DNA of 64,000 nt from Candidatus Latescibacterota bacterium (GCA_965217095.1 OZ244235.1:4488175-4552174); one strand, 5' to 3'; counted from the first letter of the stretch, positions 5,670 through 43,238 are shown. The notes: generated from the letters alone by a model not told the origin. Numbers and translations: made by a program.

Positions 5670-6589
5670 CCACCCTCTTGAAAGGCTCCTCCTCGACCTC
5701 TACGCCGGCCCCTTTTTTGGGTAATAACATAGTTGACTCAGTAAGCGAGCGCCTTTATGATGCTCCGCGATGACATGGGTCATCCAGCCCTCCATTCCCC
5801 ATATGAAACTTGAAAAACGCTTTTCAAAGGTGCCATAAGATGTTATTAGACAATATAATAACGATCGTTTCTGGCCGATGAATATGGGTCATCCAGAGGG
5901 TGAAAGCATGAGAATGGGAGTTATTGTCAAAAGTTGTGGATCTGGAGGGACAGGGCCACCAAGGCGATCGACGGCATAAAGGGAGAGAGCGTATCCTCAG
6001 GGTGACCACAAACACACCCGTACCCCGTAGACGCGGGGAGGAGGATACGCTCGTGGAAGAATCTACGATCATCATGGACCATGGCGCGATAGCGCGAGGG
6101 CAGTGCGAGTCGGCGTTGGAGACGATCCTGCGTGAAGGCGGTCGTCGCTTGCTGCAGGAGGCTCTGGAGCTGGAGGTTGAGCAATACATCGAGCGCTTTC
6201 AGCAGTTGAAGCGTGAGAGCGGCCAGGGCCTGGTGGTACGCAACGGCTACCACCAGGAGCGCGAGCTGGTAACCGGCGCTGGGAAGGTCCCGGTGCGCCA
6301 ACCGCGCGTACACGACCGCAGGCCAACGGAGCGCTTCACCAGTGCCATCCTACCACCGTATCTACGGCGCACGCCCAGCATCGACGCCTTGATTCCGGCG
6401 CTCTGCCTGAAGGGTGTTTTCGACCTCCGCCTTCCCGGAAGCGCTGCAGGCGATCCTGGTGACGGTGTGGTCGGTTTATCGGCGAACAACGTCGTGCGAC
6501 TCAAGCAAGTCTGGGAGCAGGAGTTCCAGGCCTGGTCGAAGCGCGACCTGCACGGCAAGCGCTACGTCTACCTGTGGGCGGACGGAATC

Positions 6590-36235: not shown

Positions 36236-36470
36236 GCCGGCGACGGCTCCGAGCTGGGCCCACTTGGTCTTCAGCTTCTCCTTGCGCTCGACTTCCTCGC
36301 CTTCGGTCACTCCTCGAAGTCGGGATCGATCTTCGGCCGCTGGGCCTTGTCCAGTGTCAGCTTCGCCAGCCGGCTCTCGTAGTAGATCGGTACGGTTGCC
36401 TCGTCCTCAACGGATCGCTGGATGTCGTAGATGATCGACCGCGCTACACCCCGAGCACCACCTTCGAGAC
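36236..36470 (-). pseudogene. Type I restriction enzyme HsdR, internal ~75-aa fragment with a frameshift.
   Basis: Reverse-complement translation [48 protein letters not shown] / [26 protein letters not shown], matching the conserved HsdR …[14 protein letters not shown]…EE…TEGEEVE…KLK.KWA.LEA region. Confidence 0.45.
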
Positions 36471-36600
36471 GTTTCCGTTCCCCGACGGACTGACGCCGAA
36501 CACCCCCGCCGCCGACTATGCAGACGACCCGCGCGCCGTCGCCATCGCGGACGCAGTTCAGCGGCTGGTCGAGCTGCGCGACCGGTGGCTCAGGTGGCGT
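36455..36600 (+). pseudogene. Possible MmeI/PglX-family C-terminal fragment. Low confidence.
   Basis: [13 protein letters not shown]…[19 protein letters not shown] (the FETFPFP motif of the type IIG family), then degenerate. Confidence 0.25.
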
Positions 36601-36751
36601 CCGTTTCGCAGCGGGCGATGGCGACCGCTAGCATCACATCGGTGGTAGACGCGCCGCGTATCTTGAGCAGCCAGCAGGGCGATCCACTCCGCCGCGCGCT
36701 CGGTCCAGCCAAAAGGCTCGAGCGCCAGGTCGCGCTCGTGCAAGTGGGGGA

Positions 36752-37513
36752 TCAGAGCTCATACCGCAGAGACAGGTGCAGCCCGTGGCTCCGCAACGGG
36801 GCCTGTGTCGGCGCCAGATCGAGCCCCACCGGGTCGCGGCTGCCGTCGAGCCATTCGACCCGGCCCGGCCCGGCACCGGTCTCGATGACGCCGGCATTCG
36901 TGTACCGCCAGGCGAGATCGAGCGTCGCCCGCTCGCCCCACGACATCCCCAGGCCAGCCGTCAGTCTCCAAGTCAACCCCGTCCGGCGGGTGCCCGGCAC
37001 GAGGGTCCGCGTCTTCGGGAACGTCATGCGCGTCTCACCGCTGACCACGCGGGCCGCCCCGAGGCCACCGCCGACGAAGGGGCTCAACGGGCCGAGCGGG
37101 CGCACCCCCAAGCCGCGGAGATCCACATACACGGCCAGGATCCCAGACAGCGAGGACAGATCCACGGACACGGATTGCTCACGGTCGGGGGCCAGGAAGT
37201 TGGCGTGACCATCGAACGTAAATCGCGGCCGGTAGGTCAGAAGGGCCTCCAGCCGCACGGCGGGCGCCACGGCGTACCCGAGCCCAAACTCAACGCCTGC
37301 GACCGGGCCAACGTCCCCCACCGACCGGAGCGGCGCGCCATCACCGCCCACGCCGCAGCCGTACAGCGCGGCCGGGACCAGGCTCGCACAGTCCGCGTCG
37401 GTGAAGTAGGTGTCGGCCGGACGGCTCAGGTCGAGTCCGGTGCGCAGGTAGACGTCTTGCGCGACGGCCAGTCCGGGGAGCAGGGTCGCCGCCGCCGCCA
37501 TCACCGCCATGGC
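36752..37513 (-). CDS. Outer-membrane beta-barrel (OmpA/OmpW-like) protein. A serine-recombinase N-terminal remnant is fused in-frame upstream (37513-37711, MLIGYASVSKADGSQSLDLQRDA).
   Basis: Signal peptide MAVMAAAATLLPGLAVAQ, then alternating beta-strand pattern to …HLSLRYEL. The upstream 66 codons are resolvase-like. Confidence 0.5.
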   Translation of the reverse strand, partial: AMAVMAAAATLLPGLAVAQDVYLRTGLDLSRPADTYFTDADCASLVPAALYGCGVGGDGAPLRSVGDVGPVAGVEFGLGYAVAPAVRLEALLTYRPRFTFDGHANFLAPDREQSVSVDLSSLSGILAVYVDLRGLGVRPLGPLSPFVGGGLGAARVVSGETRMTFPKTRTLVPGTRRTGLTWRLTAGLGMSWGERATLDLAWRYTNAGVIETGAGPGRVEWLDGSRDPVGLDLAPTQAPLRSHGLHLSLRYEL

Positions 37514-37654
37514 CGCGCCTGGAACCCCGTGGTGCCACCGCTGCGCTGCGACCCGCGTCGGGGCATCAGTTATTGCGCGAGCGCCTGCGCCAGACGCGAC
37601 GTCGTGGTAGACATGGCCGGCGTCGACGCCATCGGCCCGCCGCGCGTCGCGCTG

Positions 37655-37735
37655 TAGGTCCAGCGACTGGGAGCCATCCGCCTTCGAAACGCTGGCGTAG
37701 CCGATCAACATGTGTCGTAAACGGTCGTTTGGGGA
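37655..37735. repeat. Direct repeat, copy 1 (~85 bp). It encodes a serine-recombinase 5' end with its upstream res-like sequence. The partner copy is at 38487-38570.
   Basis: CCAGCGACTGGGAG…CGTAGCCGATCAACATGTGTCGTAAACGGTCGTTTG versus CCAGCGACTGGGAG…CGTAGCGATCAGCACGTGTCGTAAACGGTCGTTTG. Confidence 0.5.
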
Positions 37736-37793
37736 ATTCTAATTACTTGGCTACCCAAGCCTCAGGCGCACAATCACAACAAGGGAAAGAATA

Positions 37794-38435
37794 ATGACCG
37801 ACACCGACCACGCAATGGCTGCAAACCCGTACTCGAAGTACGCCGATTGCATGGAAGAAATCAAGAAGCGAGCTGAGGTAGTCAATGGCTTTCTCATCGG
37901 AAAGTGCCATGCGATGTATGTCCAAACCACAGCCGAATCAGTATCCCTTCAGATTCGGAAGATTCTAGAACTCATAGTCTTGGCATCCTTGGCGGCGAAC
38001 AGATCGGAATATGCGAAACTCCGAAAGAACTTTCAAAAAGACTGGAACGCAAAGCGCATACTCGAAACCCTCGAAAAGGCAAATCCACAGTTCTATCCAA
38101 CACCGAACAGACAAGTAGTGGATGGAGAGACCGGCAAGGTCGTTTCGCTGGAGAACGTCAAGTCAGGCTTTTTGACAAAACACGACTATATGGCTCTTTT
38201 CGACACCTGTAGCGGAATACTCCACGCAGAGAACCCTTTCTCAACGAAACGAGACCCCAATGCGTTTATGAATTCGGTACCAGTATGGATGGAGAAGATC
38301 AGGCGTTTGCTAAACCACCACACCATCCAGTTGATCGACGACGATAAACAGCTTTGGGTGTTGATGAAGGCCGAGACCGATGGCAAAGCCCACGTTTGGG
38401 AGTTCGAGCGAGTTCCCGAAGGCGAAGTCGAATAG
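37794..38435 (+). CDS. Hypothetical protein (213 aa) encoded by a low-GC cassette between the two direct repeats. C-terminal Rx4H (IRRLLNHH), possibly HEPN-like.
   Basis: AT-rich coding sequence in a GC-rich context. SD GGGAAAG. Starts MTDTDHAM…. Confidence 0.5.
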   Translation: MTDTDHAMAANPYSKYADCMEEIKKRAEVVNGFLIGKCHAMYVQTTAESVSLQIRKILELIVLASLAANRSEYAKLRKNFQKDWNAKRILETLEKANPQFYPTPNRQVVDGETGKVVSLENVKSGFLTKHDYMALFDTCSGILHAENPFSTKRDPNAFMNSVPVWMEKIRRLLNHHTIQLIDDDKQLWVLMKAETDGKAHVWEFERVPEGEVE

Positions 38436-38486
38436 GGAGCTTATTGCGGTGGTTCCCGTCTTTTCTCGGCAGTTCCTGCGGCGCGT

Positions 38487-38570
38487 CGAGCTGCCAGGTC
38501 CAGCGACTGGGAGTCGTCCGCCTTTTGAGACACGGGCGTAGCGATCAGCACGTGTCGTAAACGGTCGTTT
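38487..38570. repeat. Direct repeat, copy 2 (resolvase 5' end / res-like). On the minus strand it reads VLIATPVSQKADDSQSLDLAARRAAG.
   Basis: See copy 1. It overlaps the 3' end of the RHH gene. Confidence 0.5.
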
Positions 38571-38790
38571 GAGACATACCGGAACCCACACAGCGTTGGC
38601 TGGCTCGCGCCGCGAGCATGCGGTTACGGACGGTAGTCTTGCGCTCTTCCTGCTCGAGCCAGTGCAGGAGAGCCGTGTGGATGGCTTCGGGCCGGTCCAT
38701 GCCGAGGTCGGACGCTACCGCATCAAGGCGACGGAGCAAATGAGCGCCCGTGGGAACCCCCACGGTGACCGTGTCTGGATGTCGTGGCAT
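38545..38790 (-). CDS. Ribbon-helix-helix (CopG/antitoxin-like) DNA-binding protein.
   Basis: MPRHPDTVTVGVPTGAHLLRRLDAVASDLGMDRPEAIHTALLHWLEQEE, the RHH pattern. Confidence 0.45.
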   Translation of the reverse strand: MPRHPDTVTVGVPTGAHLLRRLDAVASDLGMDRPEAIHTALLHWLEQEERKTTVRNRMLAARASQRCVGSGMSQTTVYDTC

Positions 38791-38989
38791 GTGGCAGCCC
38801 TCCCGGATGGCCCGACGATACACCCAAAGGTGGCTGTACCTCCACGGATGTATTGGATAGCCTGATGAGTGTGTTTTCGACCGGGCGGGCCTAATACTCC
38901 AGTCGGACGACCGTCAGGCACCAGGCCCGCTGAGGCCTCGGGGGCACCTCGTAAATCCGTTGCCGCCGCTCAAGGAAGAAACCGGTGTC

Positions 38990-39250
38990 CGAGGCCATTC
39001 GTCAGCTGTTGCTGCGAGTGGCTGATGAGAAGCAGCTCCCATTCACTTGGCGCCGAGTCGGTCTGCCGCAGCGGATCAAGCGCTGGTCGCTGATGAGTCT
39101 GCAGCACCGGCTCGTGAAGACCGGTGGACAGCTCGTGAAGCATGCGCGCTACTAACTGGTTACTCTTGGCAGAGGGGCATCTCCACCGGCGGCTGTTCAG
39201 CGACATGTTGCGCAGGCTTTGGGCGCTGCCCCTGCCGGCAGGATAGAGGG
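38990..39250 (+). pseudogene. IS1380/IS4-like transposase C-terminal fragment.
   Basis: SLMSLQHRLVKTGGQLVKHARY(*)LLLAEGHLHRRLFSDMLRRLWALPLP resembles the conserved C-terminal helix (L.LRLLKIGA.V.R.ARR…) of IS1380-type transposases. Confidence 0.3.
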
Positions 39251-40481: not shown

Positions 40482-40574
<93 letters not shown>

Positions 40575-40604
40575 CTAAGGTGTAACGCAAGCCGGGCAAT
40601 CAAT

Positions 40605-40692
40605 TGGCGGAGGGTGAGGGACTCGAACCCTCAAGGGCGTGAGCCCGGCGGTTTTCAAGACCGCTGCCTTACCAATTAGGTCTAACCCTCCA
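40605..40692 (-). tRNA. tRNA-Ser (anticodon UGA), class II. CCA encoded.
   Basis: Reverse complement GGAGGGTTAGACCTAATTGGTAAGGCAGCGGTCTTGAAAACCGCCGGGCTCACGCCCTTGAGGGTTCGAGTCCCTCACCCTCCGCCA. Confidence 0.75.
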
Positions 40693-40736: not shown

Positions 40737-43238
40737 TCAACCCGGTGGCGGCTCGACCTCTTCCTGGCCATTCGGGCTCGCAATCTCGTCGTCGGCATCA
40801 TCGTCCGCATCGTCGTTCTGAACCACGCGCGTTATGTCGATTACGCGATCGCCCGAGTCCAGATTAATGACGCGAACTCCTTGGGTGTTGCGCCCGATCG
40901 CCGATATGCCGGTAACCGGCAGGCGAATAACGATGCCGTTGGCGCTGACGATCATCACCTCGTCTTCCTCCTGCACCTCGAGACAGGCCACCACCCCACC
41001 GTTGCGATCGGTGGTCTTTATATCAATGACTCCCTTGCCGCCACGGTGGATCGCCGGGTATTCGGCGGTATCGGTGCGTTTGCCGTAGCCGTTTTCGCAG
41101 ACGGTAAGTAGCGCCGCATCTTTCTCGACCACAACCATATCCACCACCGCATCACGCGCGGCGAGAGAGATTCCCTTAACACCCGTTGAGGCGCGGCCTA
41201 CGGGCCGGACCTCCCCTTCGTTAAAGCGGACGCACATGCCGGTCTGGGTCGCCAGCAGAATATGCTGCGAGCCATCGGTGACCGACGCTCCAATCAGCGC
41301 GTCGTTTTCCTGGATGCGCAGGGCGCGGATTCCGTCTCGGCGAATATTCTTGTAAGCCGACAGGACCGTCTTCTTGACGATGCCGCCCCGCGTCGCCGTA
41401 AACAGAAAGCGATCGTCGGCAAACTCTTGCACCGGTACGACAGCGGCGATCTTCTCCTCGGATTCGAGCATCAACAGGTTTACGACACTGCGTCCCCTGG
41501 AGGCGCGCTCGCCCTCGGGAATACGGTATACTTTCAACCAATGGCAACGCCCGTTGGTGGTGAGGAACATGAGATAGGCGTGGGTCGAGGCAACGAACAG
41601 GTGCTCGACGAAGTCTTCTTCCTTAGGTTTCATGCCGGTGACACCCCGGCCCCCGCGGTTTTGGGTACGGTAGGCTTTGGGCGACATCCGCTTGATGTAC
41701 CCCGAACGCGAAATGGTCACTACCATTTCCTCTTCCTGGATAAGGTCTTCCAGGTCGAACTCTTCAGCGGAATAGACGATCTCGGTGCGTCGGTCGTCGC
41801 CGAAACGCTCCTTGATTTCGCGAATCTCATTCTTGATGATGTGCATCTGCTCGTCGCGGCTCGACAACACCGAGCGCAGCCGTTCGACGAACTTGAGCAG
41901 GCCGCTGTATTCGGTGTCGATCTTGTCCTGTTCGAGGTTGGTCAGACGTTGCAACGGCATGCTCAGAATCGCCTGGCTTTGAATCTCGCTCAGTTCGAAC
42001 CGCTGCATCAGGGCCTGTTTGGCCTCCTCTGGGTTACGCGAGGCGCGAATCAACCAAATGACTTCGTCGATTTCCCGCAAAGCGATGCGCAAGCCCGCTA
42101 GTACGTGCGCGCGCGCTTCGGCTTTCCCTAGCTCGAAACGGGTGCGCCGCAGTACGACCTGATGGCGATGGTCCACGTAGTGGTGGAGCATCGCCTTGAG
42201 GTTCAACACCTTCGGCTTGGCGTTGATGATCGCCAGCATGTTTACGCCGAAGGTGGTCTGCAGCATGCTGTGGGAGAACAGCTGATTCAACACCACCTCG
42301 GCGTGGGCATCGCGCTTGAGTTCGAAGACGATGCGCAGACCGGCGCGCCCCGACTCGTCGCGGATGTTGGAGATCCCTTCGACGGTCTTGTCGCGTACCA
42401 GATCGGCGATCTTCTCCAACAGGTTCGATTTATCGACCAGAAACGGGATTTCGGTTACGATCAGGTTTTCGCGCCCGTTCTTGAGGGTTTCGACCTCGGT
42501 CCGAGCGCGGAGGTAGATCATGCCGCGTCCACTCAGATAGGCCTGCTGGACGCCGGTTATTCCGTGGATAACGCCGCCGGTGGGGAAGTCGGGGGCTTTG
42601 ATATGTTCCATCAAGCCGCCGATGGTGATGTCGGGTTCGTCGATCAACGCGATTAGCGCATCCGCAACCTCGGAGACGTTGTGGGGCGGGATCTTGGTCG
42701 CCATGCCGACGGCAATGCCAACTGAGCCATTGCACAGCAGGTTGGGGAACTTGGCCGGCAACACGATCGGTTCGTTTCGAGTCTCGTCGTAGTTGCCTTG
42801 AAAATCTACCGTGTCCTTTTCCAGGTCCTCCAGAAGCTGCATCGCCGGCCAGCTTAAACGCGACTCGGTGTAGCGCATGGCGGCGGGCGGGTATCCGTCG
42901 ATGGACCCGAAGTTTCCTTGGCCGTCCACCAGGGGGTAACGCAAGCGGAAATCCTGCGCCATGTGCACTAGGGTCGGGTACACGATCATTTCGCCGTGCG
43001 GGTGATAATTCCCGGAGGTGTCGCCGGCGATCTTGGCACACTTGCGGAATCCACGGTTGGGGGCCAGGCTTAAATCGTTCATGGCAACCAGAATACGTCG
43101 CTGGGACGGCTTGAGCCCGTCCCGCACGTCCGGAAGCGCGCGCGCCATGATCACGCTCATGGAATAGTCAAGAAACGAGGTCTTTAGCTCGTCTTCGATC
43201 TTGACCGCTACGATCCGGGTTTCCGGTTGTTCCAGCAT
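40737..43238 (-). CDS. gyrA: DNA gyrase subunit A (833 aa) with an acidic C-terminal tail.
   Basis: [50 protein letters not shown]…. C-terminal [12 protein letters not shown]. Confidence 0.95.

Follow-up and report, generated by a model that had tools for sequence, protein, structure and literature searches.

In the 64-kb stretch of Latescibacterota DNA studied here (the window, meaning the stretch at its full length), two direct repeats enclose a single AT-rich gene. Judging from sequence comparison, each repeat is a stub, of separate origin, of the junction between res and tnpR in a Tn5393-like (Tn3-family) transposon, and the pair is neither an in-situ nor a target duplication. The reading that we favor, with a probability of roughly 60%, is that such stubs of independent origin delimit units exchanged by a resolvase in related loci, that a dead two-unit remnant is left here, and that a separate element bounded by terminal inverted repeats (TIRs) was inserted into it and then partly deleted. 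The locus is an inactive, decayed graveyard of mobile elements beside a pair of tRNA-Ser genes; one gene in it is intact and has spread horizontally. An earlier note on this DNA had described the gene as a foreign cassette captured by repeated recombination at a res-type site. As a whole, that first reading is partly supported, and the observation behind it is confirmed.

The two repeats

The starts of the two direct repeats are 840 bp apart. Copy 1 occupies ~37630-37731 and copy 2 occupies ~38470-38571, or extends to 38578 when its full left arm is counted. The copies are ~82-87% identical (~82% over 105 nt) and differ by three 1-nt indels, by which copy 2 is frameshifted. The 18-mer GTCGTAAACGGTCGTTTG has two exact occurrences in the 64 kb versus 0.01 expected by chance. 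The GC content is 0.47-0.52 at the enclosed gene versus 0.62-0.74 in the flanks; direct repeats do bracket a low-GC gene of 213 aa. The earlier note had given the repeats as ~85 bp long with a serine-recombinase 5' end; the recombinase start is indeed there, but the length is nearer 100 bp.

On the minus strand both copies contain CAAACGACCGTTTACGACAC and then a start codon with a typical serine-recombinase N-terminus (MLIGYASVSKADGSQSLDLQRDA... in copy 1, VLIATPVSQKADDSQSLDLAARRAAG... in copy 2). Stub A (37559..37711, minus strand) comprises 51 codons from the start of a Tn5393-like resolvase gene (MLIGYASVSKADGSQSLDLQRDARRADGVDAGHVYHDVASGA...), 78% identical to the full TnpR over 41 aa, and then passes via unrelated sequence into a gene of an outer-membrane beta-barrel protein (OMP). 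Stub B (38477..38551, minus strand) consists of a GTG start and ~27 codons, in a frameshifted state, of another resolvase 5' end that has diverged further. Full-length relatives of the stubs match PF00239 at E=5.8e-46; the window stubs lack the full catalytic domain and the C-terminal HTH of a serine recombinase. Apart from these 51 and ~27 N-terminal codons, the 64-kb window showed neither an intact recombinase nor further traces of a recombinase or TnpA, and neither tnpA nor a transposon inverted repeat (IR) is left in it.

A 28-bp palindrome, TGTGTCGCAAACG-RC-CGTTTACGACACA (13+2+13), with the centre (G/A)C, precedes the stubs and ends with the A of the tnpR ATG. It is nearly complete in copy 2 (38551..38578, minus strand), with left arm GTATGTCTCAAACG, centre AC and right arm CGTTTACGACAC, and a degenerate stretch lies upstream. 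Copy 1 (37712..37731, minus strand) starts at the inner left arm CAAACG, followed by centre AC and the same right arm; in place of the outer left arm there is the terminal repeat of the inserted element. The resulting left arm, CCCCAAACG, is half-degenerate and resembles a pseudo-arm in one of the loci fetched for comparison (L034). Both repeats keep only the tnpR-proximal palindrome and the 5' codons of tnpR, and neither contains a complete res. The earlier suggestion of a res-type site thus holds for the resolvase start and the palindrome, but not for a whole site.

In each other's ranking of relatives the two copies occupy only the 45th-46th places of 73, and closer relatives are found in other genomes. 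Copy 1 shares 93% identity with L021/L025 and copy 2 shares 89% with several other loci, and the flank characteristic of copy 2 recurs in L059, a Vicinamibacterales locus. The low mutual rank therefore indicates separate origins of the window copies, which contradicts repeated recombination at one site.

The source transposon

The full tnpR is found in L070 and L013 within a compact 3.7-kb Tn3-family transposon with 38-bp IRs (CGGGTCGTTTGCGG...ACGCTAAG) ending in GCTAAG. This transposon encodes a 969-aa TnpA (PF01526 and PF13700) divergent from a 203-aa TnpR (PF00239), with the palindrome at the tnpR start, and the conserved region between the two genes is at the position of a Tn3-type res. 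The 203-aa TnpR is 80% identical to TnpR of Tn5393, which itself has a weaker form of the palindromic site in front of its tnpR. The consensus of the site, built from 30 unique full copies, includes a conserved block at -80..-32, a variable stretch, and one strong dyad (-7..+20). Within the block there are three direct half-site-like repeats with 12-bp spacing, at ~-74, -62 and -50. Alignment to the res subsites, a check proposed in the earlier note, thus found the palindrome dyad but no three-dyad architecture: the 30 full copies do not have the canonical three dyad-symmetric resolvase-binding subsites.

The conserved sequence upstream of the site was also considered as a Tn3 terminal IR. This was rejected, as in one flavour it is the tnpA start (CAT is the M of MARRTVL) and the true IRs are at the ends of the 3.7-kb element. 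By its position, as in Tn3, the palindrome was also taken for site III, an assignment that was abandoned after the mapping of recombinants.

Several other observations concern the transposon and the palindrome. The outer end of the IR, GGGTCGTTTGCGG (L070:2506-2543), shares 11 contiguous bases, GGTCGTTTGCG, with the A-type arm (window 37719-37731, other strand); the match may be fortuitous, or the site may serve in place of a transposon end. The L013 transposon contains a 1.1-kb passenger (209-aa ORF; L013:6599-7225) between tnpR and the right IR, which is missing from the otherwise identical L070 element. In L059 (1397-3104) an insertion sequence (IS) with a 504-aa transposase ends no more than 1-2 bases from the palindrome centre (...CACGGCCTGG|GCCGTTTACGACAC). 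Together with the window element, this IS hints that the palindrome attracts insertions.

The AT-rich element

Positions 37732..38476 (plus strand) belong to a truncated non-autonomous mobile element that includes a left TIR (~37731-37760, GGGGAATTCTAATTACTTGGCTACCCAAGCC), a 5' region, the intact 213-aa ORF (37794-38435, plus strand) and a terminator-like hairpin with a T-run (38438-38470). L163 contains the same sequence at 93% identity and 47 bp more, which end in the inverted left end. The two ends in L163 (GGGAATTATATACTTGACTACCCAAGCC vs GGGGAATTATATACTTTACTACCCAAGGC) match at 26/28 nt and are 789 bp apart. The left end falls at the same point in four unrelated contexts, namely the window, L163, L002 and L001; the right end is degenerate in L002. 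The inverted ends in L163 and the coinciding left ends thus identify the 213-aa gene as a passenger of a ~790-bp element with TIRs, which bound the unit in independent contexts. The window sequence diverges after CAGTTCC, whereas L163 and L002 run on to the right terminal repeat; the window element is therefore without its last ~47 bp, right terminal repeat included.

The left TIR tip abuts the CAAACG of the copy 1 palindrome. The right side of the element is fused to stub B at tnpR codon 27 (38476/38477), with a 2-nt microhomology (CC). Since the left junction is at the TIR tip and the right junction is an internal truncation, the junctions argue for transposition and deletion rather than a crossover at the res core. 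The capture of a foreign cassette at res, as claimed earlier, is thus not what the junctions indicate, nor does the window contain an intact recombinase. The element also occurs without resolvase repeats (L163, L001 and L002), in flanks without CAAACG, and its other insertion sites are simply AT-rich. No clear target-site duplication was seen in L163, and no autonomous partner or transposase for the element was found among the fetched loci. The conserved 3' flank of the gene was at one point read as a convergent tnpR 3' end (in-frame GTAEKRREPPQ*); this was rejected, as L163 shows it to be the element's own terminator and right end.

In L039, a locus from a Latescibacterota metagenome-assembled genome (MAG), the left junction is as in the window and the 213-aa gene is broken after ~134 nt (L039:1563-3224, corresponding to window 37927) by an IS with a 488-aa transposase; a second transposase-like ORF is located beyond that IS.

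The 213-aa protein

The 213-aa protein has no match in Pfam, NCBIfam, PADLOC or the PDB sequences. Its AF2 model has a pLDDT of 88, and a fold search of PDB and BFVD with this model gave no significant match. The best matches to HEPN-toxin folds (7bxo_G, 5yep_C) have E 0.6-1.3 and TM 0.37-0.53, a weak resemblance. The earlier note had raised a possibly HEPN-like Rx4H motif. The motif is present in the window protein as RRLLNHH, but its arginine, R170, is I, M, K or V in homologues, and with this variability and the non-significant fold matches the proposal is not supported. Assignments to HEPN, Abi or defense found no support, as neither the databases nor the fold search gave a significant match. 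The invariant residues of the family are E21, E22, K24, R26, E48, Q53, R55, E59 and H176.

The family includes 180 close homologues, 156 relatives in JGI metagenomes and 2,450 clusters at 50% identity, and it consists mostly of stand-alone proteins of ~200 aa; N- and C-terminal extensions in relatives gave no functional clue. Close homologues with 75-93% DNA identity are located in unrelated contexts, and no conserved neighbor or operon partner of the gene was found in 92 loci. On seven contigs (L155-L161; e.g., L155:2501-3903) a homologue with 76% identity is separated by 15 nt from the 3' end of a gene for a 187-aa resolvase, which is full-length (PF00239 and HTH_7) and preceded by a DUF1902 gene, so that the three genes form a unit. 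This resolvase was rejected as a conserved partner; it is a different gene, specific to one element. From its sequence, the 213-aa gene looks like the only functional gene of the locus and like a member of a large uncharacterised family of stand-alone proteins.

Surroundings of the locus

The cargo of unit A is the OMP gene (36752..37510, minus strand; PF13505), which has its own signal peptide (MAVMAAAATLLPGLAVAQ). The gene and stub A share one 319-aa ORF, so the in-frame fusion reported earlier is confirmed, but in a formal sense only: the gene's own start is probably M68 at 37510. The junction between stub A and the OMP gene is the same in L009, L018, L021, L031, L046 and L071. Downstream of this cargo there is a remnant of an MmeI-type methyltransferase region (36434..36751, no strand assigned), a context common to the plasmid-like loci L009/L010. 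On the other side, the upstream flank of unit B (38579..38823, minus strand) includes a degenerate res-like stretch (~38579-38640) that is partly alignable to the family res. Copy 2 overlaps an ORF at 38545-38823, as noted earlier; the RHH match of this ORF is weak (E=0.014, under the Pfam cut-off).

The fragment-rich stretch of ~35.3-40.4 kb resembles an island abutting two tRNA-Ser genes (GCT and TGA, 40483-40691), which adjoin gyrA (40737-43238). It contains a Phd/PIN pair with a truncated PIN, the MmeI piece, two OMP genes and an IS1380-type piece (38985-39155). An Rfam scan of 33-43 kb detected the two tRNAs and nothing else. Near-identical translated stretches (AAFPLADYYRGS.PCQ.PQRTARC.DNGRTRLGSHVHHEPFDGGGAQLFPRNFALG) at ~7042 and ~29621 (minus strand) point to a repeated element elsewhere in the window.

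The strain variant L004 is 99% identical and has the structure of the window plus extra insertions. One of them is a 2.4-kb insertion (L004:2555-4933 vs window 36725-36732) with an 8-bp flank overlap; it encodes an IS1-like transposase ORF and a 301-aa ORF. Another is a ~185-bp element (...GTTACCACTCGTGTACCACGAG...) that adjoins the flank of copy 2 both in L004 (6820-7005) and in the Vicinamibacterales locus L059 (~6105-6205), with the insertion point at window ~38612-38617. As it is absent from the window, this element is a MITE-like insertion that is polymorphic. In L163 the 213-aa element is flanked by a similar motif.

The stub family and its arrays

A query with the 51-aa fragment returned mainly short recombinase ORFs within large contigs, in a match list that may favor short proteins. 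The fetched loci share with the window a module that begins exactly at CAAACG. A pattern scan of GTDB genomes gave 64 exact-pattern stretches, mostly in Vicinamibacterales MAGs, with more than 25 of them in a single assembly; further matches are from Bryobacterales, Latescibacterota, Terriglobia and one Rhodobacterales MAG. When the fetched DNA was searched under relaxed conditions, the total rose to at least 99 stub copies in MAGs of Acidobacteriota and Latescibacterota. In a minority of the copies a full gene of ~203 aa follows; in most of them the coding part breaks off after 3 to ~60 codons, with many different end points. The stubs are mutually 82-97% identical over 100-220 bp, and some are located on plasmid-like contigs with RepA_C, ParA and MobA.

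Adjacent stubs are invariably co-oriented (25/25 pairs from 20 non-redundant loci with at least two copies; binomial p=3e-8), in data that consist of 8-kb excerpts of MAGs and include some phylogenetically non-independent copies. The spacing is 0.8-6.4 kb, the shortest pair distance being 0.84 kb. Neither tnpA nor an IR was found between copies; only the part of the transposon from res to the tnpR 5' end recurs. Fourteen arrays hold a full-res copy, which comes first in 12 of them. In later copies res is truncated at -39, -35, -17, -12 or -5. The final copy of L033 and of L031 has a full or nearly full tnpR.

Many kinds of cargo lie between the stubs, most of it in their orientation, and among them are OMP barrels, TonB-dependent receptors, Cache, DUF4062, Fic, M48 peptidase, a GmrSD-like protein, CARDB/LRR, multihaem cytochromes and Calx-beta. 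In L031, L046 and L018 (e.g., L046:4933-6112) a unit of 51 tnpR codons and the OMP gene is followed by a common flank (...GGACCGTGATGCCGCTCGGAAGTGTCG) and another palindrome, which in L031 precedes a near-full tnpR. By its sequence, this layout matches a putative integration of the OMP unit into a resident res-tnpR.

Exchange at the centre of the palindrome

In at least seven groups of loci, identical units of stub and cargo are joined to different upstream partners. The exchanged units are 92-99% identical over 0.5-3 kb, and their unique truncation junctions imply a single origin of each. The boundary of similarity lies at -8..0 in at least seven groups, even where homology reaches +45..+144, and one upstream flank type precedes five different downstream units. 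The base at +6, the first of the central dinucleotide, follows the upstream class: 29 G and 9 A with a full res, 3 G and 44 A with other flanks (Fisher 1.4e-11). A polymorphism at +23, only 17 nt further, shows no dependence on the upstream class and goes with the cargo. Therefore the point of exchange is at or just to the right of the palindrome centre.

This is where a serine recombinase would cut, and the natural recombinants suggest cleavage by the resolvase, which would delete and possibly also re-integrate units at directly repeated sites. In canonical Tn3 and Tn501, site III adjoins tnpR and the crossover takes place in the distal site I (PMC7157771). The recombinants studied here switch at the tnpR-proximal palindrome instead of the tnpR-distal subsite. 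The apparent crossover position would thus be opposite to that of canonical Tn3 biology, which counts against the resolvase reading. On balance the family pattern points to resolvase-mediated shuffling of cassettes. Thus the idea of a resolvase-based, integron-like process has merit for the family, with its co-oriented arrays and re-assorted units, but not for the gene in the window.

A more far-reaching reading, which we put forward tentatively and regard as possible but rather doubtful, is that the Tn5393-like resolvase and the 28-bp tnpR-proximal palindrome work together as a cassette system. The units, circular or deleted, would be excised and re-joined at the central dinucleotide, each consisting of a half-site, a tnpR stub, cargo and a half-site, and co-oriented arrays would be built up. 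Such a system would be a serine-recombinase analogue of integrons with the full res as the resident (attI-like) site. Its arrays would hold outer-membrane, TonB-receptor, surface and defense genes in apparently sponge-associated Acidobacteriota and Latescibacterota. A literature search for resolvase-based cassette arrays or Tn3 elements of sponge symbionts returned nothing relevant.

If the family pattern holds, Tn3-type resolvases do more than resolve cointegrates. Resolvase sites would join the modules of re-assortable gene arrays in apparently host-associated uncultured bacteria, and the crossover site would be at the end of res opposite to that of the textbook arrangement. The 203-aa enzyme and the 28-bp site with GC vs AC cores would make a testable system. 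It would also offer a route to mobile cargo, such as a family with over 2,000 uncharacterised clusters, in genomes where integrons are not the vehicle.

Origin of the locus

According to the favored reading, each window stub would be the palindrome plus the first 27 or 51 tnpR codons. In relatives, units would be exchanged at the central dinucleotide, most simply by the serine resolvase of the transposon. The window would be a dead remnant of two units. Unit B would comprise the RHH-like flank, degenerate res, palindrome and 27 frameshifted codons, and unit A the partial palindrome, 51 codons and the OMP gene. Judging from the left junction, the ~790-bp element would have transposed into the outer left arm of the unit A palindrome. 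A later illegitimate deletion, suggested by the right junction, would have removed the right 47 bp of the element, the rest of the unit A res, and the contents of unit B back to codon 27. This order of insertion and deletion is read solely from the junctions. Nothing in the window would now be able to catalyse recombination. The search for alternative fillings of the site, also suggested in the earlier note, was successful in one respect: unit A is filled differently, with a full res upstream of the tnpR'-OMP unit, in L009/L010 (plasmid-like contig), L021, L031 and L046. Neither an intermediate nor an empty-site allele of the window locus was found.

The main rival is homologous recombination of RecA type between dispersed stubs of 100-220 bp, by Campbell integration of stub-carrying plasmids or by unequal crossing-over. 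The arrays would be its product and the window a by-product. Homologous recombination within a short conserved segment could mimic part of the pattern. Integration by homology likewise gives direct repeats only, stubs are found on plasmid-like contigs, and their mutual identity over this length is 82-97%. However, the linkage breaks within 17 nt, between the upstream-bound +6 and the cargo-bound +23; the boundaries cluster at -8..0 despite much longer homology; and the arrays have a polarity, with the full res in the first copy. We consider this explanation unlikely.

Less likely still, and in our opinion quite improbable, is that the resolvase captured the 213-aa gene here as a cassette, by a crossover between the res core and a secondary site, so that the repeats are hybrid sites. 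Exchange at the palindrome is seen at the family level, and copy 1 retains the CAAACG half-arm and the A-type centre typical of non-resident sites. Since the comparable non-canonical left arm in L034 resembles that of copy 1, a resolvase crossover with a secondary site beside the element is still conceivable. Against the capture, the left junction coincides to the base with the TIR tip kept in L163, L001 and L002, the right junction lies in tnpR codon 27, 47 bp short of the right repeat of the element, and the element is present elsewhere without resolvase repeats.

A chance assembly of unrelated decayed transposon fragments, with no site-specific process behind the family pattern, would agree with a region rich in fragments (the truncated PIN, the MmeI and IS1380-type pieces) and with strain variants that differ by IS insertions. 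It is made very improbable by the direct orientation of all 25 pairs, by the recurrence of the res-tnpR 5' part only, never of tnpA or an IR, and by the return of identical cargo units with different partners. Finally, a tandem duplication in situ, or a very long target duplication, of one stub around the gene could account for the left copy reaching further into tnpR and the right copy further upstream, but it is effectively refuted by the ~82% identity of the copies, which are not each other's closest relatives, and by the recurrence of the copy 2 flank in L059.

Comparison with known systems

The transposons Tn5053/Tn402 and Tn552 are res-site hunters. The insertions in or beside a resolvase site, namely the window element and the IS at the L059 palindrome centre, are reminiscent of them, but no TniABQ-type genes accompany these insertions and the other insertion sites of the 213-aa element are just AT-rich, so that any targeting of res would be hypothetical. 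The element is closer in form to TIMEs and MICs (PMC4133298, PMC4337579), being short, bounded by TIRs, without a transposase and with one passenger gene. Its TIRs, in contrast, are ~27 bp long (GGGGAATTATATACTTGACTACCCAAG) and not of the 38-bp GGGG...TAAG type, and they also differ from the IRs of the Tn5393-like transposon.

The arrays are similar to integrons in their small co-oriented cargo units, in the site that recurs between them, and in the distinct first site (a full res here, attI there); in both, the cargo genes themselves mostly have the same orientation. The differences are a serine instead of a tyrosine recombinase, a double-stranded palindrome with a 2-bp core instead of a folded single-stranded attC, and the tnpR 5' stub carried by the units; integration and an array-linked recombinase gene are putative here. 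Around the locus itself neither an IntI tyrosine recombinase nor attI or attC was seen, and the ends of the element are 27-bp TIRs rather than attC.

The pdif (XerC/D) modules of Acinetobacter plasmids depend on tyrosine recombinases, and the orientation of their sites alternates. As in the arrays, discrete cargo is bounded by copies of a site for a host- or plasmid-encoded site-specific recombinase and occurs in varied combinations. The hosts also differ from those of the arrays.

A further comparison is with the module of Tn5393 and the Tn3 family that resolves cointegrates. Between the 38-bp IRs of the L070/L013 element, genes for a DDE_Tnp_Tn3 transposase and a PF00239 resolvase diverge from an intergenic region of ~115 bp that has TGTC-type half-sites; this resolvase and TnpR of Tn5393 are 80% identical. 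Transposons are known to exchange modules at res (PMC7157771). Unlike the canonical res with three dyad subsites, the site studied here has one 28-bp dyad with three direct half-site repeats spaced by 12 bp upstream, and co-oriented arrays of res stubs lacking tnpA and IRs, which are found here, are not part of described Tn3 biology. As judged from the sequences, the family pattern appears to be a variant of Tn3-family res/resolvase biology with a previously undescribed arrangement of stubs.
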